Below the pieces are notes generated by a model. That model saw only the letters and a program-made list of their open reading frames with translations. It was not told the DNA's origin and searched no databases. Positions 3,561-48,382 of a stretch of 49,330 nucleotides of DNA are shown here, piece by piece. Numbering within the stretch: the stretch's first letter is position 1; each line of letters opens with the position of its first letter. The stretch lies in UHGV virus genome UHGV-0139780, one strand, 5' to 3'. The position numbers were made by a program, and so were the translations under genes. This DNA is from a virus.

Positions 3561-3919
3561 TGTCCATGAAAATGGGTGACCTAGCAAAGCGCAAAGAGCC
3601 TGATGCACCGGCTAAGAACACAACTCCTTTGCGCCAACCAGTCAGACCACAGGGACGCCCGACTCGTGGCAAAGAGAAAATTAAAAGCCGCACAATGTCA
3701 CTGGAAGACGAATACTTCGAACTGCTGGAGATGATGAAGTTCATCCCTCGTTTCGAGAAGTTCACCCGTTCTGACGTGATTCGAGCAGCTATTTTCCATC
3801 TGGCAGAGAAGTCACCGCAGGAAATCGAGGACATCGTGAAACTTAACGAGGCGATCACAGCTGCCGACGTTACTATGCGTACCGATGAAATCAAGCGAGA
3901 ACTCATGAAAAAAGGCTGA
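3560..3919 (+). CDS. small centromere-binding partner protein (ParG/RHH-like)
   Basis: 119 aa, basic N-terminal tail, start overlaps the parA stop; 3' end resembles an RHH fold. Confidence 0.5.
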   Translation: MSMKMGDLAKRKEPDAPAKNTTPLRQPVRPQGRPTRGKEKIKSRTMSLEDEYFELLEMMKFIPRFEKFTRSDVIRAAIFHLAEKSPQEIEDIVKLNEAITAADVTMRTDEIKRELMKKG

Positions 3920-3947
3920 CAACTTCCGGTCTGGCAGCTTCAATCAG

Positions 3948-4009
3948 AACCTGTTTCTGTATATAAATAATAAGTAACTTATTAAATATATATATACGGA
4001 AGCAGGTCT
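3948..4009 (+). terminator. large hairpin (16-bp stem, AT-rich loop) plus T-run; copy A of a recurring element
   Basis: cctgtttctgtatata ... tatatacggaagcagg followed by tctttt; a near-identical element lies at 47461-47520. Confidence 0.5.
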
Positions 4010-4114
4010 TTTAAAAGACACCCACCAGAACAACTCCCTTCCGTTTTCACTTCCAAAAACTGACACCAGTCGCTATCATCTGCTCATTGTGATAAGTAAG
4101 TAACTACCTACCAG

Positions 4115-7511: not shown

Positions 7512-7587
7512 AATCGCACCTTTAAAATAAGTAGATAGTCACTTATCTTTCTGTAAGAATAGTTTCATCTGTTAGCTAGGAGTTGGT

Positions 7588-8370: not shown

Positions 8371-8427
8371 TCTCTCCGAGCGTCGTTTCTTTTACGCAAA
8401 CAATGATAGGTAAGTACAAGGTTATTT

Positions 8428-8910
8428 ATGGCGATAGTTGTGAAAGCTGATTTGTCAAAAATCCCCTCTATTTCAGGAAATAATGGTTATTCACTTCGTT
8501 GTGAGGAAGTAAAGATAAACGGTGAGTCGGCATATTGCAGTTACTCCGTTTGCCAGCATACCATTCTTGCCTTCAAAGAAAACCGTCTTCCTCGAACTTC
8601 ATTCCAGTCGTGCGCAACCGCTATCAAAGCAGGCAAATGCAAGGCGTTAAAAATGATGGTTGGAGAGATTCGTAAAGGAGAATCTCTGTATTTCGAAGAT
8701 ATGACCGCGCTCATTAAGGAGGTTGAAGAACGGAATAAACAAGCCAGAACTATAAAACGAAAACGTGACAGTGTAACGATTAATAGCATGGTTAAGAAGA
8801 GCACCACATCACAAACAGCGATCACTGACGTGTATGCGGCGTTGCTTGAAGAAACAACAAAAGAAACACATGAGCAAATCGATCAACATATGGAGGCAAA
8901 ACAACAATGA
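8428..8910 (+). CDS. hypothetical protein (Cys-containing, basic C-terminus)
   Basis: 160-aa ORF; no motif recognised. Confidence 0.4.
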   Translation: MAIVVKADLSKIPSISGNNGYSLRCEEVKINGESAYCSYSVCQHTILAFKENRLPRTSFQSCATAIKAGKCKALKMMVGEIRKGESLYFEDMTALIKEVEERNKQARTIKRKRDSVTINSMVKKSTTSQTAITDVYAALLEETTKETHEQIDQHMEAKQQ

Positions 8911-9376
8911 AAAAGTTGATCGCACTTAAGCATAAGCTGGACGAAATGAAAGCTATGGGAACCAATGCAAAAAAAGAGGCATTGGCCAACATGGATGACT
9001 TCGAGCAAAGCATGGTTTCATTGATGCTCAACCCTTTCATTCGTTTTGGGGTAAAGAAATACAAAGTGACCGGAGTTCCCTGAGTACTGGAAGCCTAAAA
9101 CGCGAGCTAAGTTAGAGCGTTTAGGGTTGGTTGCAAACGTTTCTGAAACGAAGTGTTCGGCCAACTACCAGTTAACTGATAAAGGGAAAGTATTGCTACA
9201 GCAATTAGTAGAATCAGGAGTGTTAAAATGATTCCATACATCTCATTAGCTTTTATGGCGGGCTTCCTTATCGGCTTCGGCATCTGTCGTGACTTAATTA
9301 AGCAGGAACTTAAAACCAAAACACTGTGCATCGGAAAGCGTGTGTATCGAGTAGTTCATGAAACAAAGGTTAGAAA

Positions 9377-9667: not shown

Positions 9668-9872
9668 AAACACGACGATAAGTATTTACTTACCTATCCT
9701 TTGTGTATAAGATGACTTTGTTTTCGTTGAGACGCGACTGTTTGAACTTAAATACAAGTGCAAACGAAGAAGTCTATCTGGCAGTAGCCTAATAAGCCAA
9801 ACACCAGCGAGGTCAGTTTCCAGCCTCGTTACCGAAATGGAACACACTGAGCGAGTGTGATTGCAGAACGCA

Positions 9873-10440: not shown

Positions 10441-10515
10441 GATGGTGTAGCTCAGCGGCAGAGCAGTTGGCTGTTAACCAACTGGTCGGTGGTTCGAATC
10501 CACCCACCATCGCCA
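10441..10515 (+). tRNA. tRNA-Asn (anticodon GTT)
   Basis: Cloverleaf by eye: acceptor gatggtg/caccatc, anticodon loop ctGTTaa, T-loop ggttcgaatcc, encoded CCA. Confidence 0.8.
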
Positions 10516-10520
10516 ATTTA

Positions 10521-10608
10521 GGGGAGTTAGTCCGTAGAGGTAGCGGGGTAGACTGTAAATCTACTGTCATTGCGACTCGGATGGTTCGACTCCATCACTC
10601 CCCACCAA
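10521..10608 (+). tRNA. tRNA-Tyr (anticodon GTA), long variable arm
   Basis: Acceptor ggggagt/actcccc, anticodon stem-loop tagac-tGTAaat-ctact, long variable arm, T-loop ggttcgactcc, CCA. Confidence 0.8.
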
Positions 10609-10611
10609 ATT

Positions 10612-10687
10612 GCCGGTTTAGCTCAGTTGGTAGAGCAGTCGCTTTGTAAGCGAATGGCCAGCGGTTCAAGTCCGTTAACCGGCACCA
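10612..10687 (+). tRNA. tRNA-Thr (anticodon TGT)
   Basis: Acceptor gccggtt/aaccggc, D-arm gctcagttggtagagc, anticodon loop ttTGTaa, T-loop ttcaagt, CCA. Confidence 0.65.
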
Positions 10688-10695
10688 CAACAATT

Positions 10696-10782
10696 GGAGA
10701 GTAGGGAGCATGGTGCTCAAACGGTCTTGAAAACCGTCCCATTGCGCAAGCGATGATGGTTCGATTCCATTACTCTCCGCCA
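10696..10782 (+). tRNA. tRNA-Ser (anticodon TGA), long variable arm
   Basis: Acceptor ggagagt/actctcc, anticodon stem-loop acggt-ctTGAaa-accgt, long variable arm, T-loop ggttcgattcc, CCA. Confidence 0.75.
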
Positions 10783-10784
10783 GC

Positions 10785-10862
10785 CACAGCGTTGAGCGGT
10801 TTGGCCTTTTAATCACCCAGATTAAGACTCCGCTAACATAAACCAGACCGCTCAACGCTGTG
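10785..10862. repeat. 16-bp perfect inverted repeat with 46-nt loop just after the last tRNA
   Basis: cacagcgttgagcggt (10785-10800) and accgctcaacgctgtg (10847-10862); arm sequence resembles the 10054/10161 repeat. Confidence 0.6.
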
Positions 10863-10936
10863 ATAGACAATTACTGCAGACGTTCTTACCATAGCTTACT
10901 AACATCCCAGCAACTCTTCTGTCAGCGCAAAATTCA

Positions 10937-10958
10937 AAGGGGCTTCGGCCCCTTTTTT
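10937..10958 (+). terminator. rho-independent terminator
   Basis: aaggggc ttcg gcccctt followed by tttttt. Confidence 0.7.
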
Positions 10959-10998
10959 GTAACTGAAATAGTCAAATCGAACTTTGTAAGGAGAAGTA

Positions 10999-11244
10999 AT
11001 GACGATCACTATCTACGGACGAGATAACTGCTCTTACTGCAAACGTGCGGTCGAGCTGGCAAAGCAACTAAAGGGGCATGGCTGCGGTGATTATGAGTAC
11101 ATCGACATCACCACAGCCGGTATCGACAAGGAAAAACTAAGTGAAATTGTTGGTAAACCGGTAGAGACTATCCCACAGGTACTGATCGACGGCCAGCCGA
11201 TTGGCGGATACACAGAACTGGCTGCATACGTCAGCACCCTCTGA
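10999..11244 (+). CDS. glutaredoxin/NrdH-like redoxin
   Basis: 81 aa with CSYC active-site motif in a thioredoxin-fold context (ITIYGRDNCSYCKRA). Confidence 0.7.
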   Translation: MTITIYGRDNCSYCKRAVELAKQLKGHGCGDYEYIDITTAGIDKEKLSEIVGKPVETIPQVLIDGQPIGGYTELAAYVSTL

Positions 11245-11248
11245 TTTT

Positions 11249-11272
11249 AACGGCTCACAGGAGCCGTTTTTA
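11249..11272 (+). terminator. rho-independent terminator
   Basis: aacggctc acag gagccgtt followed by tttta. Confidence 0.65.
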
Positions 11273-11323
11273 TTCCCACCAAACTCACTCCCGTTTCCCT
11301 TAAAATTCAAAAAACAACGTCAA

Positions 11324-11356
11324 AATGATTCCATACCTACTATGTATGGAATCATT
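11324..11356. promoter_or_regulatory. lox/dif-like candidate recombination site: 13-bp perfect inverted arms around a 7-bp spacer
   Basis: aatgattccatac ctactat gtatggaatcatt, about 100 bp upstream of the tyrosine recombinase gene. Confidence 0.4.
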
Positions 11357-11454
11357 ACTGAAAATGAGTTACTTTTACTCTTGATCCTATAAGAATCTAT
11401 GCCTAATATACTGTTTACTTATACAGTGCAACGGCGTAACTCGGTGATTGTCAT

Positions 11455-12558
11455 ATGAAAAATAGCTTTGACAGAGCACGCGCTGCGGAGAACACCTCAA
11501 AAGAGGCGATTGAGTATCTCGAAAGAGCATCTCAAATGCAGGCCGTTATGATCTCCCAGGTCAGCAATGACATGAGATTCTCGGACGCATTCATGTTATT
11601 CACTCGCTTATCTCTGCTGATAACAAGACGTCGGCCAGAGATCGCTGTTCATTGTATTTTGATACATGTTTTGCCGCACATTGCCGACGTAAAAGTAAGT
11701 GATATTAATAGGTTCATGGTGAACCAACTGGTCAACCCACTAATACTGGATGGCAAAATTGTTATGGGCCGCCGCGTTTTCTCTCTGATGAAGCAGTTCC
11801 TCAGCTGGTGCGCCTTCCAGGGGATGATCGACGTGTCACCGTTAAACGATATGTCACTGAACAAAGTTGCCGGTGGCGCAAAGCCCACGCCTCGCGAGCG
11901 GAAGCTGACCGACGCAGAGGTATGGGTGTTCTGGAATATATGGGACTACTTCAATGTGTGCGCTGGTACAAAATGGGCGGCCAGGCTATGCCTTGTATCG
12001 GCAAGACGACCTGACGAAGTTCTGCGGGCTAAAAAAAGTGAGTTCAATCTTAAGCGTGGGGTTTGGAATCAAGGCAAGAGAAACAAGTCAGCACGTGAGC
12101 ATTCGCTGCCTTTAAGCACATTAATGCGCACATGCATTGAAGAATTGTTCGAATACGGCAAAGACAGCCAGTGGCTTGTGCCTTCGAATAAAAAAATCGG
12201 GAAAGACCTTCCTATGTCTAAAGTGGCAATAGCCCAGGCATTACGTCGTATTCTGGACCGACCAGAACTGATGGAGCTTGAGCCATTTACACCCCGAGAT
12301 TTGCGCCGTACTGCGCGTAGTTACTTCCCAGCATTAGGCATAAGCCAGGAGGTATCACGCAAAATCATGAACCACAGTCTTGAGGGGATAGATCGGGTCT
12401 ACGATCGACACGATTATATGGACGAGATGCGAGACGCCTTAGAAAGTTTCTCGACGTACATCGCATCAATCGTAGAGCAACCGGATTTAGACGAAATTGA
12501 CCACAAATTCAAGGGAGATCGTCTATCAACAGAGCTTATTCGTGTAAATTTTTCATAG
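11455..12558 (+). CDS. tyrosine site-specific recombinase (integrase/resolvase family)
   Basis: C-terminal catalytic-domain signature: ARLCLVSARRPDEV, TPRDLRRTARS, NHSLEGIDRVYDRHDY; N-terminal start uncertain. Confidence 0.6.
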   Translation: MKNSFDRARAAENTSKEAIEYLERASQMQAVMISQVSNDMRFSDAFMLFTRLSLLITRRRPEIAVHCILIHVLPHIADVKVSDINRFMVNQLVNPLILDGKIVMGRRVFSLMKQFLSWCAFQGMIDVSPLNDMSLNKVAGGAKPTPRERKLTDAEVWVFWNIWDYFNVCAGTKWAARLCLVSARRPDEVLRAKKSEFNLKRGVWNQGKRNKSAREHSLPLSTLMRTCIEELFEYGKDSQWLVPSNKKIGKDLPMSKVAIAQALRRILDRPELMELEPFTPRDLRRTARSYFPALGISQEVSRKIMNHSLEGIDRVYDRHDYMDEMRDALESFSTYIASIVEQPDLDEIDHKFKGDRLSTELIRVNFS

Positions 12559-12939
12559 AGACTTTATGGCCTCAACAACCTTTTGTGATGCGCCTTTCTC
12601 TTTACCGAATCGCTCGTTATATGCAGCAAGAACCTGTTTTTCGTCCTCGTTAAGAGGAGCGGTGCCTTCTTTGTATAAAAATGCTGCGAGTTCAGGTTGG
12701 CGTTCTTCCAGAACCATCATCATAAGGCGACTTGGCTCAATATCCAGTGCCAGCGCCAGCGGACGAACCTTATCGATAGGCAAAGGAATTTTGCCACTTT
12801 TAATTAAAGAAAGGTTGTTGGCATTTTTATAACCAATAAGTCTGGCTATTTGTGCCTGACTCATAGATGAGGATTCAATCAGCCCTGCAATAACAGCAGC
12901 ATAGCGACTTTCAATAAATTCAATTTTGTTTTCAGACAT
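12553..12939 (-). CDS. XRE-family helix-turn-helix transcriptional regulator (repressor-like)
   Basis: HTH segment SQAQIARLIGYKNANNLSLIKSGK; convergent with the recombinase gene; AT-rich intergenic region upstream. Confidence 0.6.
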   Translation of the reverse strand: MSENKIEFIESRYAAVIAGLIESSSMSQAQIARLIGYKNANNLSLIKSGKIPLPIDKVRPLALALDIEPSRLMMMVLEERQPELAAFLYKEGTAPLNEDEKQVLAAYNERFGKEKGASQKVVEAIKSL

Positions 12940-13189
12940 CGTTATAACCTTTGCGCGTTTAATTCTCTCTGGTAAGTGCTTACCGATATTACATCAAAGG
13001 TTAGGGTTGTAAAGCTATTATCATTTTTTCGGCAGGCACTTGTAAGACCGAGCAAAGGTCCATGCATGGAGAAGAACTAGCCCAAAATAGGTAAGAAAAT
13101 TAACTTGCATCTGATATAGATGTATTCAGTATTGATACAAATTTTAGTAGTATTCCTTACCATAGTATAAGTTAGAATGGATTGATTGA

Positions 13190-13402
13190 ATGAAAACCAC
13201 TATTTCCAGCCTAATCGCTCTTGAGACCGGACACGTACAGAAATTAGCTGATGAGTGTGTAGCTGACATCCTCACCGATCTTCCGAATGAGCAGATTCAG
13301 GTTGGTTTGAATGACACAACTGGCTTTATATTCGAACTTAACAACAAACGCTTCACGCTTCTCAATACCGGCTCCGGGTCTTTAGCCGTCAGAATCTGTT
13401 AA
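13190..13402 (+). CDS. hypothetical small protein, divergent from the XRE regulator
   Basis: 70-aa ORF; a 9-bp inverted repeat hairpin follows at 13415-13447. Confidence 0.3.
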   Translation: MKTTISSLIALETGHVQKLADECVADILTDLPNEQIQVGLNDTTGFIFELNNKRFTLLNTGSGSLAVRIC

Positions 13403-13500
13403 CCCCTCTTCTCCCTGCGCGAATGGCTTAGTTCCCTGTTCGCGCAGTGCTACATTAAACACACTAGTAAATAATTTGTTTTCATAACAAAGGATTAGCC

Positions 13501-15609
13501 ATGTCTAAAAAACGTTCCATCAAAGAGGTTCAGGACTTCCGTGACAGTGTAAAACGAGTAGTCGCTCTCCTTTCAGGTAAAAACATCCCTGTTGCAGAAC
13601 GAGGGGACGACGCTTATGTACGCTATAACGATGATGGAGAGCCAATTCTCGTAAACATCCCATCAATCCCGGATAACGCAACACCGGCATTGATGAATGC
13701 TGTGCGCGGATTTCTCGATCATGAGGTTGCTCACATTTTGTTTACCGATATTCGTGTGTCCAACAAAATGAGAGAAAAAGGACGCGTTCCTTCCTGGTCG
13801 CTATGGAATGCCTTAGAAGACGTGTTCATCGAGCGAAAAATGGGGCAGGTCTTTAACGGAACGAGACGTAATCTGATGGCAACTCAGCGCCTTATAATCG
13901 GAAAAGTCTTTAAACCAAAGGCTTCAGAGGCTATTGCTTATTGTGGCAAAGATCAGCGCGCGCTTTTTCTAAACTTCTTTCTCTGTCCGGTTGTAAGAGC
14001 CTGGGATGGCCAAGCACCGTTCGTAGATTTCATGGATGAATACTGGCCTGTCATTGAGAAACCAATTTCATTATTAAAAGAACATGGTATCGATGTGGCC
14101 GTGCGTAACATGTCTTGCACCGAGGATTGTGTAAAGGTGGCTGCGACCATAGCTAAGATCCTCAAAGACACTGAAAGCGAAAGCAAAGGTAAGGAGTCAG
14201 CTCCGGGAAAAACTTCCGATCCTTCAGACGCTGACCAGACGGATGCCTCTGGAGAAAACAATGAAGATAACGAAGATCATGAGACACCCTCATCGTTAGA
14301 TAATCACAAATCTATCAAATCAGAATCACACAGTAAGCACAAACATGATAATAACGACAGTAATGATTCAGATAATTCTGAATCATCAGAAACAATATTC
14401 GATGATACAGAAAATGATAAAGAGGTATCAGATTCTGATGCTTCTGATAACGCGGCGTCAGAATCATTAACCGCTGACCACGAAAAAAGAAAAACGACAG
14501 AAGACGGCTCTTCAGATATTCCAACTCCGTCAAAAATGAGTCTGGAAGAGGCTTTAGAGGAGCTGGATAGCATAGAAGATGAAGTCGGAGGCATGACAGA
14601 AGATGCTATATCCGAAACGATTAAAAGCGAGTTAACAGAAAGCTCGAAAAGCGAATACAGGCCATACAATCGCTCATACGACTTCATCGGCTCGATTGAT
14701 CAGGCAGAAGCCCATATCAAACGGCTTATTAAAACATTCTCCGATATTGATTTAGGAGGATATCCAATCAGCCGCTATCGCATCGTTCCTGAAGGCAACC
14801 AGCTCTTCGACAAATATATTGAAAAGCATCTTTCGTCAGGTGTTTCGTCGACGCTGGCAAAAGACCTGGAGCGAGCAATAGCAAGCAGAAACAGAGTTCA
14901 GTTTATACCGGGCCAGCGTCGGGGGCGCATTCATGGTTCTAGTATCTACAGATTAGCAATGAATGATGATCGCGTGTTTCGTAAAAAAGAAGAATCTAAA
15001 GCCGTTAACGCCTGTGTTCAACAAGTGATTGATTTATCAGGTTCAATGTGTGGTATAACGATACAATTGGCTCTTGCAAGTGCATATACCATCGCCGATG
15101 CCCTTGATCGAATAAATGTTCCCAACATTATCACCGGCTTCACTACATTTGGTAGTCATATGGCGGCAGGAGAACTTAAGGCTGTCAAGTATGAGTTCTC
15201 TCGCTTTGAGTCTTTAATGCTACCTATCATCAAAAATTGGAATGAAAAGGTAAATTCTCGCGAAGTTCGCTCACGTATGGGGTGCGTAGGCTACACATTC
15301 CCACTTCTTAATAACGTGGATGGTGAAAGTATAGCCAGCCTTGCATCGTTATTTTCCGGTCGCATGGAGGACAGGAAGATCATGCTTGTTCTGAGTGATG
15401 GCGCGCCGTGGGCTGTTGGGAGAGGGTTTGACGCTCATTTGCGTTCGGTTGCGAAGCAAATTGAAACGCAGACTGACATTGATTTGATGGCAATTGGCAT
15501 CATGACTGACGCACCGGAGAGATTTTACTCAAATCATGCCCTGGTAACGAGCGTTGATAGTCTTGGTTCATCTGTAGTTACTGAACTATCTCGTATCATT
15601 TTGAAGTGA
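13501..15609 (+). CDS. von Willebrand factor A domain protein (CobT-like) with central acidic Ser/Asp-rich region
   Basis: MIDAS-like DLSGSM motif in the C-terminal half; long acidic low-complexity segment; followed by an AAA+ gene. Confidence 0.6.
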   Translation: MSKKRSIKEVQDFRDSVKRVVALLSGKNIPVAERGDDAYVRYNDDGEPILVNIPSIPDNATPALMNAVRGFLDHEVAHILFTDIRVSNKMREKGRVPSWSLWNALEDVFIERKMGQVFNGTRRNLMATQRLIIGKVFKPKASEAIAYCGKDQRALFLNFFLCPVVRAWDGQAPFVDFMDEYWPVIEKPISLLKEHGIDVAVRNMSCTEDCVKVAATIAKILKDTESESKGKESAPGKTSDPSDADQTDASGENNEDNEDHETPSSLDNHKSIKSESHSKHKHDNNDSNDSDNSESSETIFDDTENDKEVSDSDASDNAASESLTADHEKRKTTEDGSSDIPTPSKMSLEEALEELDSIEDEVGGMTEDAISETIKSELTESSKSEYRPYNRSYDFIGSIDQAEAHIKRLIKTFSDIDLGGYPISRYRIVPEGNQLFDKYIEKHLSSGVSSTLAKDLERAIASRNRVQFIPGQRRGRIHGSSIYRLAMNDDRVFRKKEESKAVNACVQQVIDLSGSMCGITIQLALASAYTIADALDRINVPNIITGFTTFGSHMAAGELKAVKYEFSRFESLMLPIIKNWNEKVNSREVRSRMGCVGYTFPLLNNVDGESIASLASLFSGRMEDRKIMLVLSDGAPWAVGRGFDAHLRSVAKQIETQTDIDLMAIGIMTDAPERFYSNHALVTSVDSLGSSVVTELSRIILK

Positions 15610-15704
15610 ATAAAACAGCCTTAACGATAAGTAACCACTTACGATAGTTAATGGTATATTTATATAAGAGGTTGAACGCTCATTAGAGAACAAAGGAAAA
15701 ACGC

Positions 15705-17987
15705 ATGACGACTACTGCACTGCAAAATGAAAAAAATCCTTCTGATTACCTTGTTTGCAAGTGGTGCGGCAAATCATTTCACTATTTTAAGTCCCATGTA
15801 GCCAATGGTAATTGTGAGGGCATTCCTGAGTCAGTAAAAGATTCCGACCCTGACACCGTACTGAAAATGTACACAACGCAGTTTCCAGATGAGCCAACGC
15901 TATCGAAAAAGGCACTTGATGCAATTCAAGCTAAACGTGCCGAGCAAAAAAGCGAACTGGCCAAATCTTCTGGCGTGACCAGTAGCCCAGGCTACACAGG
16001 CACAGTTGAGTACAAGACAGATCTGGTCGCAGCTCACGAACTGCTAAACGTAACGGTGGAAGAACTCGGAACAAAACGTGGGACGCCGCTCATGGTTAGC
16101 GTCAACGTCAATACGCCGTTTCCAGAGTTCGTTCCCGAAGTGAAGAAGGGCTACGTATATGGCGACTTCGAACTGATCAAAGATATTTTCATGATGCTTG
16201 AACTTGGCATACCTGGCTATTTGTGGGGTCATGCAGGAACAGGCAAGGCCCAGCCAGTAGATACGCTAATCCCAACACCAAGAGGGATGGTGCGCTTTGG
16301 TGATTTGAAAGTTGGTGATGAGGTATTCGGATCTAACGGAAAGTCCACAAAGATAACAGGCATCTTCCCACAAGGGATTAAGCCAATTTATCGCATCACC
16401 TTTAGAGATGGTTCTAGCACACGAGCTTGCGGCGAACATCTTTGGCATATCCTACCTACACATGAATACAAGACCAAAAACGGCAAGAGCTACAAGCAAC
16501 ATGCAAAAATCAGAACGACCAAAGAAATGATTGACTTGGGAATCAGAAATTCTGGTGGTCAGTGCAAGTTCAAAGTTCCTTTAACTAAAGCTGTCGAGTG
16601 GCCCTCGCAGGAACATCTCATCCATCCCTATTTATTAGGTGCGTTAATTGGAGACGGTTACTTATTAGGGAACACGCCAGCAATGAGCGTGGGTACGGAA
16701 GACATTGATATCAAGAGAAGAATCGATTCTCTTCTTCCTGATGGTATGCGCACCAGCAAGCTCAGAAACACGAGTGAAAACGGGCGGCAATTTAATATCA
16801 TCGACTGCAAAAAGTTCCGTCAAAACAGAATGATGGATGAGATTAAACGGCTGGGTTTGAATGTGCAATCAGGGGAAAAATTTATCCCAGATGAATATCT
16901 CTTCGACTCCACTGAAAATCGCCTCGCTTTACTCCGAGGACTGATGGATACAGACGGAAGCGTGAGACAAAACCGTACAAACTTCTCCACCACGTCTGAA
17001 AAGCTGGCTGCATGTGTGAAGTTTCTTGTTCAGTCTTTAGGCGGAACTGCGATAGTAAAAGATGGAGCCGCAGAACGTCATAAGAGCGGTTACTATGCTG
17101 ATATTAACGTGAAAATGTTCATTAACCCATTTTCCGCTGATCGGAAATCCAAAAACTGGTCTCCATCTACCAAGAATCCGCCAAGCAGATTTATCACCTC
17201 TATCGAGGAAGATGGCGAGGCTGAGTGCATATGTATAAAAGTAAGCGCAGATGATGAACTGTACATCACCGAAGAGTTTATCGTTACGCACAATACAACT
17301 CTGCCTACACAGCTATGTGCTTTGCTCAATCGCCCGTTGATCCGTGCCCAACATACAGCATCAATGGAAGAGGCACATGTTACGGGGCAAATTCTGGCGC
17401 GTGATGGCTCTACGTATTTCGAACCTGGCTTGCTTGCGCTCGCAATGAAGCATGGCTGGGTTTACCTCGCGGATGAATACGACTTTGCGTTTCCACAAAT
17501 TCTTGGCGTGTATCAGCCAGTGCTGGAAGGTGAAGCGTTGGTCATCAAAGAGGCGACTCCAGAATGGCGTCGCATTACTCCGCATGAACGGTTTGCTTTC
17601 ATTGGCACTGGCAACACGAACGGATCTGGTGATGAAACCGGCTTGTACCAGGGTACAAACATCCAGAACGCCGCGAACTTTTCGCGTTTTGGCATCGTTT
17701 CGAATGTGAAATACATGAGCAAAGAGGCAGAGATCAACATGTTGATAAATGCCGGCATTGTGGATGAATACGCTGAAAAGATGGTTAAGTTTGCCGGTAT
17801 CGTTCGCGATGGATACGAAGAACACAATATTAGCCAACCAATTGGGCCTCGTGAGCTTTTGTTGTCGGCCAAGATTGGAATGATGCGAGGCGATTTTGTG
17901 ACAGGTATTGAGCGTTCTTTCATTAACAAACTCCCTTCAGCTTCTGCGCAAGCGGCACGTGAAGTTGTTCAAAAAATATTTGGTTAA
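15705..17987 (+). CDS. AAA+ ATPase (CobS/MoxR-like) interrupted by an intein
   Basis: Walker A GHAGTGK is split from the TTLPTQL continuation by 349 aa carrying two LAGLIDADG-like motifs and a terminal HN. Confidence 0.6.
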   Translation: MTTTALQNEKNPSDYLVCKWCGKSFHYFKSHVANGNCEGIPESVKDSDPDTVLKMYTTQFPDEPTLSKKALDAIQAKRAEQKSELAKSSGVTSSPGYTGTVEYKTDLVAAHELLNVTVEELGTKRGTPLMVSVNVNTPFPEFVPEVKKGYVYGDFELIKDIFMMLELGIPGYLWGHAGTGKAQPVDTLIPTPRGMVRFGDLKVGDEVFGSNGKSTKITGIFPQGIKPIYRITFRDGSSTRACGEHLWHILPTHEYKTKNGKSYKQHAKIRTTKEMIDLGIRNSGGQCKFKVPLTKAVEWPSQEHLIHPYLLGALIGDGYLLGNTPAMSVGTEDIDIKRRIDSLLPDGMRTSKLRNTSENGRQFNIIDCKKFRQNRMMDEIKRLGLNVQSGEKFIPDEYLFDSTENRLALLRGLMDTDGSVRQNRTNFSTTSEKLAACVKFLVQSLGGTAIVKDGAAERHKSGYYADINVKMFINPFSADRKSKNWSPSTKNPPSRFITSIEEDGEAECICIKVSADDELYITEEFIVTHNTTLPTQLCALLNRPLIRAQHTASMEEAHVTGQILARDGSTYFEPGLLALAMKHGWVYLADEYDFAFPQILGVYQPVLEGEALVIKEATPEWRRITPHERFAFIGTGNTNGSGDETGLYQGTNIQNAANFSRFGIVSNVKYMSKEAEINMLINAGIVDEYAEKMVKFAGIVRDGYEEHNISQPIGPRELLLSAKIGMMRGDFVTGIERSFINKLPSASAQAAREVVQKIFG
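16248..17294 (+). mobile_element. intein with LAGLIDADG homing-endonuclease domain inside the AAA+ ATPase P-loop
   Basis: LLGALIGDGYL and LLRGLMDTDGSV blocks; ends ...VTHN with Thr as +1 residue; N-terminal residue Ala (non-canonical); excision restores GHAGTGKTTL. Confidence 0.6.
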
Positions 17988-18167: not shown

Positions 18168-21100
18168 ATGAAGGCTCTGATGGTTCGAACTGACTTCTCT
18201 CTTGGGGAGTCGGCTCTAAAAGCAGAAAACGCGGTGAAGATTGCCAGAGAAGCTGGCTACACCGCTGTAATTTCGGCAGATAGCATGAATATTGCGAGTG
18301 TTATTCCACTACAACGTGCCGCTGGTGACGACATGGCGGTTATTTGTGGTGTGAAACTAAACATTGTTGATGATCCCACATACGAGCACCGGGCTAAACT
18401 TGCTAAAGAGTCTATGGGATGTATGGAATCATTAGAGCGTGGGCGGAACTACTCCTTTACCGCTCTAATTAAAAATGAGCAGGGATATCGAGACATCTGC
18501 GAACTAATGACGGCGGCCAACACACGAGAACAGTTCTACTTTGTACCGCGTCTCTCGCTCGAACAGTTGGTTTCTACATATGCCAAAGGCAACATCATCC
18601 TGCTAACTTCCGACATCGGTAGCGTGTTCCAACGCAACGATTTTGCAAAAATCATAAGCACATTGATTACAGCGGGTGGAAAAGACAACTTCTATAGTGT
18701 GATTTATCCGCACCCTACCCCATTCTACGACCAGATTAACGTCCGGGCGATGAAAGTCGCCAGCGCACTGAAAATAGAGCCAGTAGCGTTTTATCCCGCT
18801 TATTACGAATCGATCGACGATGCAGACATTAAAGACATTGCGCACATGGTTACGAACAACATCAAAATCGACCAGCCGCATCGTCTGCGTATCCCCCACC
18901 AGCGAGATAACGCCGTCAATGGTCGCCGCCATCTCCTTGAGGCGCTTAAAGCCTTCTCCGTTCGCATGGATGTGCCGGTAACAGCTGCAATGGCCTCAAC
19001 AACGCAGGATACCATTATCGATGCCTGCACATGGCGCTGGCATGAATTGCCACCAGCACTGCCAAAGATGGCAGACGACGAGCCTGCAACTCTGATGAAA
19101 CTGGCCGTTGCTGGGCTGCGTAAACGTCTTACCACAAAAGAGTTTGGCTACACACCACCGGCTTCTGAGAACAGGGTTTATGTTGAGCGACTTAAGTACG
19201 AAATGGATACGCTGACTCGCCTGGGATTCTGTGGTTACTTCCTGATGGTACGCGATCTGATGAATCACAGCCGTGAAACTGGCATTCCTGTCGGGCCTGG
19301 TCGTGGTTCCTCTGCTGGCTCTCTGGTGGCATGGTGCATAGGCATAACCAACGTCGACCCTATCCGTCACGGTCTTCTGTTTGAACGTTTCATCAACCCT
19401 GAGCGTCTCGACTTGCCAGATGCGGATTTGGACTTCAGCCAGGCACGTCGCCATGAGGTGATCGAGTATCTGAATGAACGCTACGGCGAAGATTACGTTG
19501 CAGGCATTCCGAACTTCACATATCTGGGCGCAGCCTCTGCACTACGTGACACTGCTCGTATTTATGGTGTGGAGTCCGCAGATATGGCGGTATCAAAAGA
19601 ACTGAAGAACGTCGAGGATGATAGCCTTCCACTGGAGGAGCTGCGCGAACAACTGGCAAGTCTCGACAAATACGCGACAAAATACCCTGATGCATTCAAT
19701 GCAGCCTGCAAGTTACAAAGCCTTATGCGTGGCTTTGGTAGACATGCGGCAGGGATGATCGTAGCAGGTGTTCCTCTGACAGAACGTACACCGGTTGAAC
19801 GACGTGGTGACGCGCGTTGTATCGCATTTGACAAGCGTTACTGCGAGGCTATGGGCCTAATTAAGCTGGACGTGCTTGGCCTGGCAACTCTCGATTTGCT
19901 CGATAGTGCAAAACGCTACATTAAAGAGAACACAGGTGAAGATATCAATCTTGATGCCATATCTCTTGAAGATCGCAAGGTGCTGGATGGTTTTGCTGCT
20001 GGGTACACTCAAGGTGTTTTCCAGCTTGAATCAGGCCCAATGCGCAAGCTGCTTAAAGATTTAGGTGGTGGAATTGAGCCAATGAGCTTTAAAACGGTTG
20101 TTGCTACGACTGCGCTCTTCCGGCCGGGACCAATTCAGTCAGGCATGTTGGATGATTATGTTTCTGTCGCCAAAGGCTTTATGACGCCGGAATCATTACA
20201 CCCCGTTCTTGATGAACTTACCGCAGAAACAAATGGCGTGATTCTCTATCAGGAACAGACGATGAACGCGACTCGATTGCTTGCTGGCTTCACAATGGCT
20301 GAAGCTGACGGTGTGCGTTCCGCAATCGGTAAGAAGAACATGGAAAAAATGAAGAGCATGGGCGAGAAGTTCATCGTTCAGGCTCAAGCTGGCTGGATAG
20401 ACGTTGAGCTGGAAGATGGCACTACACAGCGCATTCACCGTGCGGAACATTTTAAATGCGAAGACGGAACCCTGAAAACTGTCGAAGAAGCACTTGAGCA
20501 CGGAGCAAAACTACCTATAAACGCAGTACGCGTTACAGCGTCACATCCAGGGCTATCAGAGATGAAGGCGAAGGAGATCTGGACTGCATTCGAGAAAAAT
20601 GGTGCCTACCAGTTCAACAAATCACACTCTGTTGCTTACTCCTTAATCAGTTATCAATCTATGTGGTTGAAAACTCATTATCCCGCAGAGTTTTTCGCTG
20701 CTGCTCTCACTATTCTTGGCGAAGATAAACACCAGGGGCTGGTTAAAGATGCGCTGACCTATGGTATTCGCGTATTGCCACCAGACGTTAACGTGTCATC
20801 TAACCGAATCGAGATCCGCACGCTTGAAGATGGCAGCCAGGTGCTGTATGCGCCCTTCTCTGCTGTGAAGGGGTGTTCTGAGAATGGCTGCCAAGCCATC
20901 ATGAGAGCGCGAGAAAAAGTTGGCGGCAAATTCGAGTCACTGGCGCAATTCGAAGAAGCTGTCGAGAAACGTTCCTGTAATAGTCGAGTGCGCGAATCAC
21001 TGCAAAAAGTAGGTGCGTTTGCATCCATAGAGCCAGGTAGTCTGCCAGCAACTGATCCAGAGCGTCTCCGCGACCAGGCAGAATTGATGGGAAACCTTGT

Positions 21101-22245: not shown

Positions 22246-22362
22246 TTTTTGATAGATAATAAGTATGTACTGATCTATCATTTGACAGCTCGAAAAAGCC
22301 ACGAATGAACGAAAGCCCAACGCGCATAGCGCCATCGGTCAAATCACAACAAGGAGAAACAC

Positions 22363-24664: not shown

Positions 24665-26842
24665 ATGGCAAAAGGAAAATCCGCACTGGCACTTGCTCTG
24701 AAAAAGAAAATCGGTAGCAACGACGAAATTCAGAAAGTAACTCATTGGATTGACACAGGCTTTCCTCCGTTAAACAAAGCTATTTCCGGTCGTTACGATG
24801 GCGGTTTCCCATGTGGTCGTATCGTAGAAGTATTCGGGCCGCCAAGCGCGGGGAAAACCTTTTTGGCAACAGCAGCAATGATATCCGCTCAGAAACAAGA
24901 TGGTCTGGCGGTATTCCTCGATCATGAGAACAGTTTTGATGTTGGCCTGGCTGTCGCCAATGGCCTGAACGCAGATGAGGATGACGGTCAGTGGGTATAC
25001 AAGCAGCCTGATACCTTCGAAGACTCTGTAGAGTTGATCGGCACAATACTTAAATTGGTACGTGATGAAGAGCTTATCCCTGAATCAGCACCTATCTGTA
25101 TCGTGGCTGACTCACTTGCGTCTATGGTTCCGAACTCCAAAGCCGAGAAGTTCGAAAAGATGGCTGAAGGCACTGCCAAAGACAAAGATCAGCTAAACAT
25201 GAACGACAATACGGCGCTGGCGCGTGCGACGAGTGCGAACTTTCCTACTCTGGCTTTGTGGGCGCGTAAATACAATGCTTGTTTAATTTTCCTCAATCAG
25301 ATGAGGACAAATCTGGGAATTATGTTTGGCGATAGATGTTTGAGAGGGGATGCAATAATACCTTTCGTTGATGGCACAAGCGCAACTATCCGAGAAATTG
25401 TAGAGAACAAAATAGAAAAAGATGTGTGGTCGTACAACGAAGAGTCAGGCGTTATCGAGCCAAAGAAAATCAACGAATGGCATGATAACGGCCGCAAGCC
25501 AGATGATGAGGAATGGATACACATCAGCACGCTTGGACACAATACCAAAAACGGGGTTATGGCTGCGACATTTACAGAGGATCACCGCATCCTGACTCGT
25601 CGTGGTTGGACTACGGCCAAAGACATAATTGAAGGCGATGAATTGCTTACCAAGCGCACAACTGTTTTAACTAATGAAACCAGGTCTCAAGTTGTCGGCT
25701 TCTTAGTGGGAGACTGCGCTTTTAGAAAGATGAGAGGCGAAAGAACCACAGCAGGCATTGCTTTTCAGGATAATGCGAACCCGTCTTACTCAAAGTGGAA
25801 AGCGGATAAGCTATCGAATCTATTTGGCGAATTTACAGAGACAAAAGTTCTTTTAGGTCGAATGTCAGGAAAGTACGGAATTAGACACGACTCTCCTGTT
25901 AACAACGATTTTAAAGACCTGGAGGATTATGTCAGAAATCCGCTAAAAGTGTTTACGGAGTTTGCCTCCTGGCAAAACTTCGCTCTACTGGTAATGGATG
26001 ACGGTCATCTTGATAGCAGAGGTCGATACGACATTTCATTTAAACGTAAGGCTAAAAAACACTGTGGCAGAGGGTATCTCCAAAACCTGGCCGATATCCT
26101 GTACGACAAATTCAGCATCAGATCAAAAGTTAACGCGCGTAAGGGAGGCCTCCTCTTTGACCAGGAATCCAGCGCCATAATTGCTGAGAATATTGCATCG
26201 TTTGTCTTTGATTCTATGCAGTACAAGCTCCCCTCGGAGTATCGTGGCAAGTTCGTCGATAATTATGATATGCAACCGGTAGTCTCATTCTATGAACATT
26301 GGACGGTCGTCAAAGATGTCCGCGAGAGCAAGGTAAAAAAGGGAGCGGGGAGAACATTAACACGACGTTATGACATTGGTGTTGAAGACAACCATAACTA
26401 TATGGTTGGAAATTCGGCAAATGGATTTATCGTTCACAATTGCACGTCACCAGGTGGCGATTCACCGAAGTTTTACGCTTCTGTGCGCATCCGTCTCGGT
26501 GCATCGGTGATGAAGGATGGTAAAGAGAAGATCGGTCAGGACGTAGGCGCAGAGTGCATCAAAAACAAAGTTGCACCACCGTATGGCAAATGCACCTGGA
26601 AATTCTACTTCGATCCTACTCGTGGCCTCGACGTTATCGAATCGCTCGTCGAGTACATGCTGGAAGAAGGATACCTGCCAAAGAACGCCAGCGGGCGCGT
26701 AGAAATTGGTGACAAGAAATACACCAAATCACAGATCGTCGAGATGTATCGGGAGAAGCCACTAGCTGAAATCATTGCGGCTTTACAGGCAATCGACGAC
26801 CGGAGAGCAAAAGATACCCCCACGGAGTCAGTAGAAGGGTAA
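24665..26842 (+). CDS. RecA/UvsX-like recombinase interrupted by an intein
   Basis: Walker A GPPSAGKT; exteins rejoin as LNQMRTNLGIMFGDR-CTSPGGDSPKFYASVRIRLG, matching the RecA block NQIR..[23 protein letters not shown]. Confidence 0.7.
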   Translation: MAKGKSALALALKKKIGSNDEIQKVTHWIDTGFPPLNKAISGRYDGGFPCGRIVEVFGPPSAGKTFLATAAMISAQKQDGLAVFLDHENSFDVGLAVANGLNADEDDGQWVYKQPDTFEDSVELIGTILKLVRDEELIPESAPICIVADSLASMVPNSKAEKFEKMAEGTAKDKDQLNMNDNTALARATSANFPTLALWARKYNACLIFLNQMRTNLGIMFGDRCLRGDAIIPFVDGTSATIREIVENKIEKDVWSYNEESGVIEPKKINEWHDNGRKPDDEEWIHISTLGHNTKNGVMAATFTEDHRILTRRGWTTAKDIIEGDELLTKRTTVLTNETRSQVVGFLVGDCAFRKMRGERTTAGIAFQDNANPSYSKWKADKLSNLFGEFTETKVLLGRMSGKYGIRHDSPVNNDFKDLEDYVRNPLKVFTEFASWQNFALLVMDDGHLDSRGRYDISFKRKAKKHCGRGYLQNLADILYDKFSIRSKVNARKGGLLFDQESSAIIAENIASFVFDSMQYKLPSEYRGKFVDNYDMQPVVSFYEHWTVVKDVRESKVKKGAGRTLTRRYDIGVEDNHNYMVGNSANGFIVHNCTSPGGDSPKFYASVRIRLGASVMKDGKEKIGQDVGAECIKNKVAPPYGKCTWKFYFDPTRGLDVIESLVEYMLEEGYLPKNASGRVEIGDKKYTKSQIVEMYREKPLAEIIAALQAIDDRRAKDTPTESVEG
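25337..26440 (+). mobile_element. intein with LAGLIDADG homing-endonuclease domain in the recombinase
   Basis: 368 aa beginning CLRGDAII and ending FIVHN with Cys +1; internal VVGFLVGDCAF and FALLVMDDGHL blocks. Confidence 0.7.
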
Positions 26843-26847
26843 ACACA

Positions 26848-26871
26848 AGGCGTCCTATGGACGCCTTTTTT
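26848..26871 (+). terminator. rho-independent terminator
   Basis: aaggcgtcc tatg gacgcctt followed by tttttt. Confidence 0.7.
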
Positions 26872-26934
26872 ATCTCTTGAAAATATATAAGCACTTACTT
26901 ATCATTTTCGCATAACAACCACATAGGAAAACAC

Positions 26935-28816: not shown

Positions 28817-29031
28817 GTTTACAGTAAAATTTATATAAGTTAGTATCTACCTATCATGAAGATTTTTATTGAATACTTGTTACTCATCGTGTCAATAGCT
28901 TTTGTCATCGACTGCATTTTCACTGGTGTCATTCGTAAAGTCTTTTCCCCGGTGAACGAAGTAGTCATAAACGCTTTGGCTATCGTGCTCGTATTTAATT
29001 CAGCATTTGATGTAATCAAAGAGGTGGCAGC

Positions 29032-32219: not shown

Positions 32220-32473
32220 CCTTCCAGATCGTATATTGGCGTAGATAGAATCTACGCCTCCTCAAAATAGCTCTCATAGCGTTCTACAGTGATCCTGTCT
32301 TATTTTTAATCATACAGACAAGCAAAGTTGCGCCACAGCAAATAGGTATATACTTACTTATAAATTTTGTATATTAAGACGCTCGTTTCATTCCTAACAT
32401 ACCGTTATGCATAGTTGTTTACCTTCTTATTGCTCTTAAAATTTGTATCAAAATAACCACAAAGGAAAAATAC

Positions 32474-37017: not shown

Positions 37018-37090
37018 CCTCATTGATAGGTAGGCACTTATCTATTAACATGGGCCACTATATTTAGTGGCCCTCTTTATTTGGTGATAC

Positions 37091-41601: not shown

Positions 41602-41772
41602 TTGTAGGTAGTTATCTATCTATGTATATTGTGTCTGCGCGTTAAATTTCTGAAACAACTATTCGTTTTTGGTGGCCTATGGTCACCATTTTTTTATCTG
41701 TCTGGTCTTGTTCTCTCAATAAATGTAAACTCACACAATAAATAAGTGATTACCTATCTTTGTGAGGTTTTT

Positions 41773-46660: not shown

Positions 46661-46843
46661 CGTTCCCCTACTGAAAATAAAGCCCATAGAGAGCTTTATA
46701 GTGCTGGGTAAGCCAATCACATACCCAGCACCACAAAAACGCGCCAGAGAGCTTCTTGTTCGCATTTCTGGCGCATTTTATTTGATTGCTATACATAAAA
46801 CCAAATGCAAAAATAGGTAATCACCTACCTATTGAGAAAGAAG

Positions 46844-47437: not shown

Positions 47438-47460
47438 TTTGTTCTGGCGTCTGTAATTAG

Positions 47461-47520
47461 CCTGCTTCTGTATATATAAATAACTACATATTAATTATTA
47501 ATATACGGAAACAGGCTGTT
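47461..47520 (+). terminator. large hairpin with AT-rich loop plus T-run; copy B of the recurring element
   Basis: cctgcttctgtatata ... atatacggaaacagg followed by ctgtttt; homologous to 3948-4009. Confidence 0.5.
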
Positions 47521-47598: not shown

Positions 47599-47853
47599 AT
47601 GAACCACTTTAAGGAAACCAACATGTCATACCCGACTAATGTCGTTGCACTCGTAGAGAGCGATTTTCTGGCTCAGGCTCGTGAAATGATGAAAGATCGC
47701 GAGCAGGCTTTCACCTTGTATGAATGGGCAATTAAGTGCTTGCATCTTGGGGAGCATCGCGAACTTGTTGAACAGCTTTTAGGTGAGTTGATCAATGAGG
47801 TGTTTGCCTTGAATGTTCAACTACATGGTCGAGAAAGCAACCAATCACAATGA
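47599..47853 (+). CDS. hypothetical small protein
   Basis: 84-aa ORF with AAGGAAACCAACATG start context. Confidence 0.3.
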   Translation: MNHFKETNMSYPTNVVALVESDFLAQAREMMKDREQAFTLYEWAIKCLHLGEHRELVEQLLGELINEVFALNVQLHGRESNQSQ

Positions 47854-48382
47854 TAGATAAGTACTAACTATTTATAAAGTGAATGATAAGTGCTAAGATC
47901 TGATAGTTTCCAGTCGTAGACTGGAGGCTCGACCTGATGGGTGGGGGTAAGCGTCACTGGCGTCAGGTTTAAAAAAGCTCACTACCAGCGTAGAACCGGC
48001 ACCGTTTAGGGGTTGGGGAAGGGGGAACCAAAGTGGGCAGAGAGAAGGGTCACTTTATGATTGTCGAGTCTGGGGTGTTTCGAGAGGTTGAATCCAGTAC
48101 TCCCCTTCATAAAGTGTGGGAAGATCTCGGTTCTGGGGTGCTGTCATCCATAACTTCCCAAGCCTAAGCTGGCAGTAGACTTAGGTCATAACTTTTCAGG
48201 TTATGAAACGACCAGGTTGGTGAGGAATTTTTATACTCACCTCCCTGGGAGAGTATTACCTGAAAAGACAACCTCTCACTTCGTTCGAGGTGAACTTCAC
48301 TCACTTCGTTCGTTCAGTTCAGGTTTTATTAAAATCTGTTCTGGGAAGTAAGTTTTTTTTTTTCTAAAAAATTTTTAATATT

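Follow-up and report, generated by a model that had tools for sequence, protein, structure and literature searches.

The window, by which we mean the whole stretch of DNA analysed here (49,330 nt of the virus genome UHGV-0139780), is one half of an SSU5-like phage-plasmid, the half for replication and nucleotide metabolism. A 12-kb probe taken from it matches Escherichia phages CMS-2020a, Cyrano and PhiR41_1 at 97–98% identity, and Salmonella phage SSU5 and Klebsiella phage-plasmids at 76%; Cyrano is the pLF82 plasmid of strain LF82. By the Cyrano annotation the window starts with lysis genes, toxin-antitoxin genes and parA, continues with helicase, primase, tRNAs, an integrase with a helix-turn-helix (HTH) regulator and cobT/cobS-like genes, and later contains genes for Pol III alpha, SSB, RecA, repA, sbcCD, nrdAB, thyX and others, nearly all of them on the + strand. 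Elements of this kind are abundant: a 3.6-kb probe matched 822 plasmids in PLSDB.

The gap between the ruvC-like gene and nrdA, conserved throughout in four genomes (the window, Cyrano, SSU5 and Klebsiella pJN2-26), holds the sequence GATAGGTAGGCACTTATCTATT at 37025–37046, which the initial annotation flagged as one member of a recurrent intergenic motif family. This copy (26.6 bits by the weight matrix described below) overlaps a sigma70-like promoter, TTGATA(37023)-N17-TAACAT(37051). The predicted start of this promoter lies inside the left arm of a terminator hairpin at 37052–37073, so that the hairpin would stop read-through from upstream and spare transcripts begun at the promoter itself.

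The motif and its copies in the window

The family had been written as GATAGGTA(A/G)GTAnTTATC, which is a compressed version of a 22-bp near-palindrome whose consensus, GATAAGTAAGTACTTACTTATC, is a perfect palindrome. It contains two 8-bp half-sites, TAAGTAAG (positions 3–10) and CTTACTTA (positions 13–20), with centres 10 bp apart, about one helical turn (10–11 bp). TA steps recur every 4 bp in the consensus, and either purine or either pyrimidine (R/Y) is tolerated at positions 5–6 and 17–18.

Simple patterns already show the enrichment. ATAGGTARGTA with at most one mismatch occurs 9 times in the window against 0.75 expected; of 26 occurrences of ATARGTA, 19 fall in the non-coding 14% of the window; and GATARGTA-N6-TACYTATC with at most three mismatches occurs 13 times against 0.35 expected, a number equalled in none of 100 shuffles. 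We then scored the window with a symmetrised weight matrix built from 44 sites of the window, Cyrano and SSU5 and not iterated. It gave 18 local maxima of at least 10 bits, compared with 0.33 in Markov shuffles, and 14 of at least 14 bits, compared with none. An iterated matrix with a 10-bit threshold was discarded because the arms are made of TANN tetramers and it drifted to registers shifted by 4 bp.

A copy of this one motif is present at all 14 positions listed in the initial annotation, so the recurrent family is real; the list omitted the copy at 242–263 and a core-only copy at 12971–12984. The statement that the motif was not seen inside genes holds for 17 of the 18 copies and fails for one, in the cobT-like ORF. 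Frequencies in coding and non-coding DNA are far from equal: non-coding DNA makes up 14.2% of the window and holds these 17 (binomial P = 6e-14). Of the 31 gaps of at least 20 nt, 16 contain a copy. Distances to the next start codon are not fixed and range from 0 to ~130 nt.

Sigma70-like promoters overlap the copies in different registers at 22253, 26877, 28818, 37023 and 41602. Upstream of the gp32-like SSB gene, AATAAGTATGTACTGATCTATC at 22258–22279 (24.2 bits) lies within TAGATA-N17-TATCAT. Directly after a terminator at 26847–26867, AATATATAAGCACTTACTTATC at 26882–26903 (25.1 bits) fills the spacer of TTGAAA-N17-TATCAT, which agrees with the consensus at 10 of 12 positions. The copy TATAAGTTAGTATCTACCTATC at 28834–28855 (21.5 bits) overlaps TTTACA-N17-TAGTAT and runs up to the start codon (ATG) of the ORF that begins at 28856, and the weak copy TGTAGGTAGTTATCTATCTATG at 41603–41624 (15.2 bits), before a terminator at 41670, overlaps TTGTAG-N17-TATATT, a promoter that was read directly from the sequence.

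Elsewhere a -10-like hexamer stands alone, 7 nt downstream of the copy. This is the layout at GATAAGTATTTACTTACCTATC (9677–9698), upstream of the tRNA cluster, the best full copy in the window (29.6 bits), where the hexamer is TATAAG; at AATAGGTATATACTTACTTATA (32341–32362, 26.5 bits), upstream of the sbcD-like gene, where it is TATATT; at AATAAGTAGATAGTCACTTATC (7526–7547, 20.4 bits), between primase and the next ORF; and in the cobT/cobS gap, where GATAAGTAACCACTTACGATAG and GATAGTTAATGGTATATTTATA form two overlapping weak copies at 15626–15664 (12.2 bits).

Other copies adjoin a ribosome-binding site or an ATG and leave too little room for a promoter. After the parA operon, GATAAGTAAGTAACTACCTACC at 4091–4112 (27.0 bits) adjoins the ribosome-binding site of the ORF starting at 4127. 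The weak copy GATAGGTAAGTACAAGGTTATT at 8405–8426 (10.4 bits), in which a ribosome-binding site replaces the right arm, ends 1 nt before the ATG at 8428, and AATAGGTAATCACCTACCTATT at 46812–46833 (26.2 bits) stands 10 nt ahead of the adenine methyltransferase ATG. The copy at 28834 belongs here too.

The remaining full-length copies are GATAAGTAAGCACATACCTACA at 242–263 (24.4 bits), upstream of the holin gene, AATAAATAAGTGATTACCTATC at 41737–41758 (27.0 bits), upstream of thyX, the weak GATAGATAAGTACTAACTATTT at 47852–47873 (11.4 bits), and the sole intragenic copy, GTTAGATAATCACAAATCTATC at 14295–14316 (14.3 bits). The position of the last is kept in Cyrano, SSU5 (20.7 bits) and Klebsiella (26.0 bits), and the site is stronger in the latter two. 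The core-only copy, GGTAAGTGCTTACC at 12971–12984, is perfect over the inner 14 bp and has the highest inner-14 score of the window (18.5 bits), without the outer ATA/TAT.

Weak copies, at 10–15 bits, are those at 8405, 15643, 41603 and 47852. Two further weak matches, at 3962–3983 (12.8 bits) and 47471–47492 (15.5 bits), lie in the loops of the two copies of a long terminator-like hairpin (~3946–4009 and ~47458–47520); they belong to this separate repeat and are doubtful members of the motif family.

The motif precedes early, late and lysis genes alike. The gaps that are free of it flank the toxin-antitoxin pair, parA, repA, the tRNA-grx region and int.

We asked of 56 unique sites whether the two arms covary. 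Paired cells (Watson-Crick or G-U) numbered 456, against 461.7 ± 5.4 after column shuffling (P = 0.88), and A-C mismatches between the arms are as common as chance predicts. The arms thus vary independently, which argues that the motif is not a hairpin kept by selection; no Rfam family matched at the sites. The flanks are mirror-symmetric as well, a TATCAT-like hexamer at positions 19–24 being equally frequent on the mirror side. This -10-like hexamer is hence part of the palindrome, and a promoter of fixed geometry was ruled out. The motif therefore appears to be a duplex site read by a protein of two-fold symmetry.

The motif in related elements

Cyrano has at least 23 copies, spread over its whole genome. 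Seven lie in the structural and lysis region: at the terL/portal junction, inside the C-terminus of the portal gene, after the major capsid gene, before a tail gene, at M/L, at J/fibre and before the holin gene. About 15 lie in the replication region, and one lies at 84.6 kb; one copy stands 16 nt before a parB-like operon. No copy was found in the block at 85–105 kb, which is composed of small ORFs and minus-strand genes. The count is ~24 in SSU5 and 24 in Klebsiella pJN2-26; these copies occupy orthologous junctions, and their flanks have diverged. A whole SSU5-like genome carries about 25–30 copies. With 18 in the window, at least 23 in Cyrano and 24 in pJN2-26, the sites are dispersed over the genome as expected of many operators in a plasmid prophage.

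A pattern scan of IMG/VR also recovered contigs of 58–63% GC that have no nucleotide similarity to the enterobacterial elements. These contigs are nevertheless syntenic by protein (uvsW, parB, parB-like, ABC, winged-helix, terS, terL, portal, MCP), with 40–58% amino-acid identity, and carry the motif at the same junctions, including the one before the parB-like operon, for 118 sites in 324 kb. Because the motif served to retrieve these loci, each of them contains one site by construction; all further sites count as independent observations. The consensus in these distant relatives is sharper, nnTAAGTAAGyrCTTACTTAnn, with positions 3–9 and 14–20 almost invariant, and in a small subset of their sites an ATG is embedded in the right arm.

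A scan of genome contigs with TAAGTAAGNNNTTACTTA gave only scattered single matches and no multi-copy clusters outside the family, a result for which no chance expectation was computed. We looked for heteroimmune variants, with a joint change of operator and repressor, and found none; the motif and the HTH region of the candidate repressor described below are invariant in all homologues found.

The initial annotation offered a phage-encoded regulator as one possible binder. The symmetry of the motif, its conservation at orthologous junctions and its presence in relatives of 58–63% GC all agree with that proposal, and it is from these that we infer binding. Conservation this deep across hosts points to a conserved phage-encoded binder rather than to a host factor.

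A candidate repressor and expression in the lysogen

Convergent with the integrase gene, on the - strand at 12553–12939, lies a gene for a 128-aa XRE/Cro-CI-type HTH protein, our candidate repressor and candidate binder. Pfam matches to this ORF (HTH_19 and HTH_37) fall below threshold (E = 0.004), while it matches the PHROG_8 transcriptional regulator with E = 4e-11. An AlphaFold2 model of the protein has a pLDDT of 80, and Foldseek gave matches of probability 1.00 with C-proteins, with HigA and with the lambda cI N-terminal domain (TM-score ~0.7 on the target). The best fold matches are C.BclI, C.AhdI, C.Esp1396I and the lambda cI N-terminal domain; others are HigA, SPC32H Rep and Stl. The element is thus predicted to encode an HTH protein of XRE fold. 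On the + strand at 13190–13402, divergent from the XRE gene and where a Cro would sit, is a 70-aa ORF.

The predicted promoter of the XRE gene, TTTACA-N16-TAATAT, lies on the - strand at 12986–13013. Directly downstream of its -10 is the core at 12971–12984, the only perfect 14-bp inner core of the window, so that a site is found at the regulator's own promoter. The block of promoter and core is kept in the Cyrano, Klebsiella and Cronobacter elements while neighbouring sequence diverges. Among the high-GC loci only one covers the XRE region; in that relative, of 59% GC, an XRE homologue of 35% identity occupies the corresponding place before cobT and is itself preceded by a full 21-bit site. 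The core at 12971 lacks the outer ATA/TAT that is strongly conserved elsewhere, and it may be bound differently from the other sites.

Homologues of the XRE protein are confined to SSU5-like contigs of ~100–116 kb. The HTH segment (SQ..I...IGYKN.NNLSLIKSGKIPLP) of these homologues hardly changes between genera, in contrast to the termini, and so agrees with the invariance of the motif. A search of genome contigs for related loci with the repressor gave no match. A search for homologues of CobT returned only enterobacterial proteins among the matches listed and did not reach the high-GC relatives. The link between the XRE protein and the motif is circumstantial, and its binding is putative.

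SSU5, which was isolated as a free phage, is without the int/XRE segment. Its junction is present in none of the 822 related plasmids, all of which have the segment, and an Enterobacter plasmid with a flank 99% identical to that of SSU5 has a phoH...int-XRE segment at this place. SSU5 is therefore a recent deletion derivative, and the one free-living lytic isolate has lost exactly the int/XRE module. Despite the loss of the repressor it retains all of its sites at full strength, which is explained by the recency of the deletion and is not positive evidence for the XRE protein as binder.

Expression in the plasmid-prophage state was taken from the S1 table of the published RNA-seq of a Cyrano lysogen (PMC9928086). 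There the XRE gene has a value of 95.8 (prophage median 9.8), while the other conserved candidates for DNA binding, the winged-helix gene CYRAN_123 (7.8) and the ParB-like genes CYRAN_119 (5.0) and CYRAN_120 (9.5), are silent. The winged-helix and ParB-like proteins were on this account rejected as the lysogenic binder. The homologue of the 70-aa ORF, CYRAN_46, is induced ~90-fold in macrophages (PMC9928086).

First genes after a site are at background level, with a median expression of 8.5, compared with 10.7 after site-free gaps, a modest contrast (one-sided Mann-Whitney P = 0.027). Of the strongly expressed Cyrano genes, 12 of 13 have no site, and the parA operon is expressed. The site-bearing genes would be just as silent if they depended on an activator, missing in lysogeny, that acts at the sites.

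Readings of the motif and comparison with known systems

We favour, with moderate confidence, the reading that the motif copies are dispersed operators of the prophage repressor, which would most likely be the 128-aa XRE protein. In the plasmid-prophage state a repressor dimer would sit on each palindrome with one HTH per 8-bp half-site. Independent arms, mirror symmetry and half-site centres 10 bp apart are what is expected of an HTH dimer on duplex DNA, and the presence of one motif over all classes of lytic genes fits a prophage repressor better than a class-specific activator. Where a site lies over a sigma70 promoter (22253, 26877, 28818, 37023, 41602), bound repressor would prevent initiation. 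At gene junctions too tight for a promoter (4091, 8405 and 46812, and terL/portal in relatives), it would be a roadblock to read-through. The site-free maintenance genes (toxin-antitoxin, parA, repA, and int with the repressor gene) would stay on, and the core-only copy at the start of the repressor transcript would give negative autoregulation.

In function the array most resembles two known systems, the dispersed C1 operators of P1 and the stoperators of L5 and the Cluster A phages, and is a member of neither. P1 is a plasmid prophage of ~100 kb in which one repressor acts at many scattered operators, many of them over promoters and one set at the repressor gene. Its C1 operators are asymmetric 17-mers (ATTGCTCTAATAAATTT) and are not known from the late operons, which are under Lpa control. 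The likeness lies in the plasmid prophage, the operators scattered over the genome, the overlap of some with promoters and the one at the candidate repressor gene. Unlike the P1 operators, the sites here are 22-bp palindromes of different sequence that occur also in late and lysis operons, and the candidate is a 128-aa XRE HTH protein whereas the P1 repressor C1 has 283 aa.

Stoperators, bound by gp71 in L5 and Cluster A, number ~25–30 per genome and lie at conserved positions in short intergenic gaps of early and late operons, often with no room for a promoter. They are asymmetric 13-mers, bound by a monomer and strictly oriented to transcription. Our sites share with them a number of at least 20 per genome, the short gaps and the presence in early and late operons, but are palindromic and free of orientation. 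That they would also block elongation is suggested by the sites that adjoin a ribosome-binding site or ATG without room for a promoter.

The Cro-CI systems of lambdoid phages, 434 and P22 and the C proteins of restriction-modification systems share with our candidate the XRE fold, the palindrome and the half-sites one helical turn apart, as well as an operator at the regulator's own promoter and a small divergent ORF adjacent to it. They differ in having 2–6 operators in one immunity region, whereas the sites here are genome-wide. The candidate XRE protein has no S24 autocleavage domain, so induction would take another route. The KorB/KorA system of RK2 offers a palindromic operator that occurs ~12 times round a plasmid at variable positions relative to promoters, as here. 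KorB, however, a CTP clamp of the ParB family, is expressed in the plasmid state, whereas the ParB-like genes here are silent in the lysogen, and the KorB operator differs in sequence from our motif.

A bolder form of the repressor reading, which we put forward tentatively, is that palindromic stoperators silence the SSU5/pHCM2-like phage-plasmids, including the relatives of 58–63% GC, an XRE dimer acting at ~25–30 sites by blocking both initiation, at promoters that surround the palindrome, and elongation. Elongation would then stop at late-operon gene junctions and at start codons. Induction might start from an int promoter under LexA control, with a LexA box at 11409–11427, whose transcription converges on the repressor gene. 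If true, this would be the first genome-wide roadblock network of such kind outside actinobacteriophages.

The strongest alternative, somewhat unlikely in our judgement, is that another conserved phage protein binds the sites during lytic growth, either as a global lytic activator or as a Cro-like switch that shuts the repressor promoter. The leading candidate for this role is an 88-aa winged-helix protein encoded just upstream of terS, outside the window (the CYRAN_123 homologue). Each of 12 SSU5-like phage records has it, at 84–100% identity; it has syntenic homologues in the high-GC relatives and is conserved wherever the motif was found. The copies at 9677, 15626, 32341 and 7526, with a -10-like hexamer 7 nt downstream and no -35, have a layout like that of activator-dependent promoters, and the retention of all sites in SSU5 without the XRE gene also suits a lytic binder. 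Against this reading are the lack of a fixed -10 spacing, the mirror-symmetric flanks, the several sites adjoining a ribosome-binding site or start codon where a promoter cannot fit, and the span of one motif over early, late and lysis genes. The winged-helix gene, being silent in the lysogen, cannot be the silencer, and the best core is at the repressor promoter.

It is improbable that the copies act as RNA, as intercistronic hairpins that set mRNA processing, stability or translation, perhaps with a FljA-like (PF03614) protein. The sites are transcribed within operons, often beside or over a ribosome-binding site or start codon, and the palindrome can fold (-7.4 kcal/mol for the copy at 9677, z = -3.4). 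The PF03614 family (FljA) has been described as RNA-binding, and relatives of the window encode a member with a weak Hfq-like match. The arms, however, show no covariation and tolerate A-C mismatches at chance frequency, the stems are short and AT-rich, and both arms are conserved in sequence, which recognition of RNA read 5′ to 3′ would not need. Sites over -35 and -10 elements make sense only in a DNA role. The FljA-like protein was rejected as binder, with no site near its gene and low expression in the lysogen (18), and is kept as a minor rival.

We consider it very unlikely that the sites serve the two ParB-like proteins as a scattered centromere or a silencing array, like KorB on RK2 or the SopB sites of N15, a phage-plasmid in which dispersed partition sites are known. 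In Cyrano a site precedes the parB-like operon by 16 nt, and the high-GC relatives have one in the same place, as one might expect of such an array, but the ParB-like genes are silent in the plasmid state (5.0 and 9.5, median 9.8) and so cannot serve partition or silencing in the lysogen. Their products are short (222–226 aa) and match nuclease-type ParB_N families, and parA (2892–3560) has its own small partner and no copy nearby.

The two remaining explanations are also very unlikely. That the motif is a promoter read by the phage's own sigma factor, the other binder proposed in the initial annotation, or by a phage RNA polymerase would account for the restriction of the motif to intergenic DNA upstream of many genes and for the scarcity of sigma70-like promoters, which are rarer in the window than in shuffles; it is contradicted by the perfect-palindrome consensus with no orientation signal, by the absence of an orientation-specific -10 at fixed spacing, by start-codon distances of 0 to ~130 nt and by the placement before early, late and lysis genes alike, and the annotations of Cyrano, SSU5 and pJN2-26 list neither a sigma factor nor an RNA polymerase. 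A host transcription factor is suggested by the identity of the motif in E. coli, Salmonella, Klebsiella and Cronobacter elements and by the resemblance of its arms to the consensus sequences of NarL-type heptamers (TACYYMT) and of the outer pentamers of the Fur box, but spacing and arrangement are unlike the NarL 7-2-7 site and the Fur box, the motif is kept in relatives of 58–63% GC, presumably in quite different hosts, and the genome-wide scan gave the single scattered matches noted above, again with no chance expectation.

The motif is a real and strongly supported family of cis-elements and appears to be undescribed, no description of it having been found in the searchable literature. SSU5/pHCM2-like phage-plasmids are very common in clinical Enterobacteriaceae, some of them carry resistance genes, and their lysis-lysogeny control is essentially undescribed. 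The motif marks the family, having led us to the high-GC relatives; it also maps a putative controlled regulon and names a candidate repressor with a putative autoregulatory site. The question of how plasmids of 100 kb silence ~100 lytic genes would thereby become tractable by simple binding and reporter work.

Motif occurrences in the portal gene, at promoter matches and in hairpin loops

The 22-bp near-palindrome, our candidate operator, is mostly intergenic. In each of the three enterobacterial lineages, the portal gene contains a strong copy (25–28 bits) in its C-terminal part, nearly unchanged among them (positions 3526–3547, 3543–3564 and 2092–2113 of retrieved loci L002, L004 [SSU5] and L129, respectively). 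No portal-gene copy was seen in the high-GC relatives. These form a distant SSU5-like branch in IMG/VR of 58–63% GC, with contigs up to 121 kb (loci L023, L046, L057, L062, L105, L268 and others); protein-level synteny links it to the enterobacterial elements, and the same AT-rich palindrome recurs in it at corresponding junctions between genes.

Sigma70-type promoter matches were rarer than in dinucleotide shuffles in each of the three window segments scanned (18 observed versus 31.6 shuffled, 21 versus 29.4, and 8 versus 14.9). On the + strand between 20 and 40 kb, five of the eight such matches overlap motif copies.

A long AT-centred hairpin, cctgcttctgtatat...atatacggaagcagg, occurs twice, at ~3946–4009 (3′ of the parA operon) and at ~47458–47520 (3′ of the methyltransferase gene). 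The first has a folding energy of −24.8 kcal/mol (z = −6.4) and the second one of −22.2 kcal/mol (z = −4.2); a U-run follows each, and both are kept in Cyrano, SSU5 and Klebsiella pJN2-26. The two hairpins look like terminators; a compressed version of the motif sits in the loop of each.

Gene content among relatives

Four clustered tRNA genes (Asn, Tyr, Thr and Ser; 10441–10782) are found in the window, versus three in Cyrano and one in SSU5. Because reads in the E. coli LF82 lysogen are very high over the tRNA region and the adjoining minus-strand ORF CYRAN_43 (7084 versus a prophage median of 9.8; PMC9928086), an abundant small RNA is suggested there. A DNA ligase gene, present between the CYRAN_35 and CYRAN_37 homologues of Cyrano, SSU5 and pJN2-26, appears to be absent at the corresponding place in the window, 8907–9376, which holds short ORFs only.

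Two window genes are enlarged relative to their counterparts. The cobS-like AAA_5 ATPase (15705–17987) has 760 aa versus 411 in Cyrano, with a LAGLIDADG/Hom_end insert, and the RecA-like protein (24665–26842) has 725 aa versus 358 in SSU5, with an intein splicing domain and a LAGLIDADG endonuclease inside. Both inserts look like inteins lodged in phage-plasmid genes.

Outside the window, the annotated transcriptional regulator CYRAN_114 (20380–20901 of the Cyrano locus, L003) belongs to the FljA family (PF03614, E = 1e-80), the repressor of phase-1 flagellin. It also gives a weak Hfq-like match and contains what look like two Sm-like repeats, and is kept in the Klebsiella relative at 75% identity.

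The integrase gene and the putative lysogeny module

Just upstream of the integrase gene (11455–12558) is a promoter-like TTGATC-N17-TAATAT (region 11381–11428), whose −10 is overlapped by a perfect LexA-box-like sequence, TACTGTTTACTTATACAGT (11409–11427). The integrase gene is convergent with the XRE-family candidate repressor gene (12553–12939, minus strand) and overlaps its 3′ end. In the LF82 data the Cyrano int homologue is up ~25-fold in macrophages (PMC9928086). Convergent int transcription from this promoter may provide an SOS-driven route to induction.

A ~6-kb segment is absent from SSU5 (at ~42 640 of L004; counterpart 10744–16700 of locus L133), comprising phoH, a gp49-like gene, grxA, a toxin gene, the integrase, the XRE regulator and a small ORF. 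All 822 related plasmids carry DNA at this junction, so the group's type phage, SSU5, has apparently lost the putative lysogeny module through a recent deletion.
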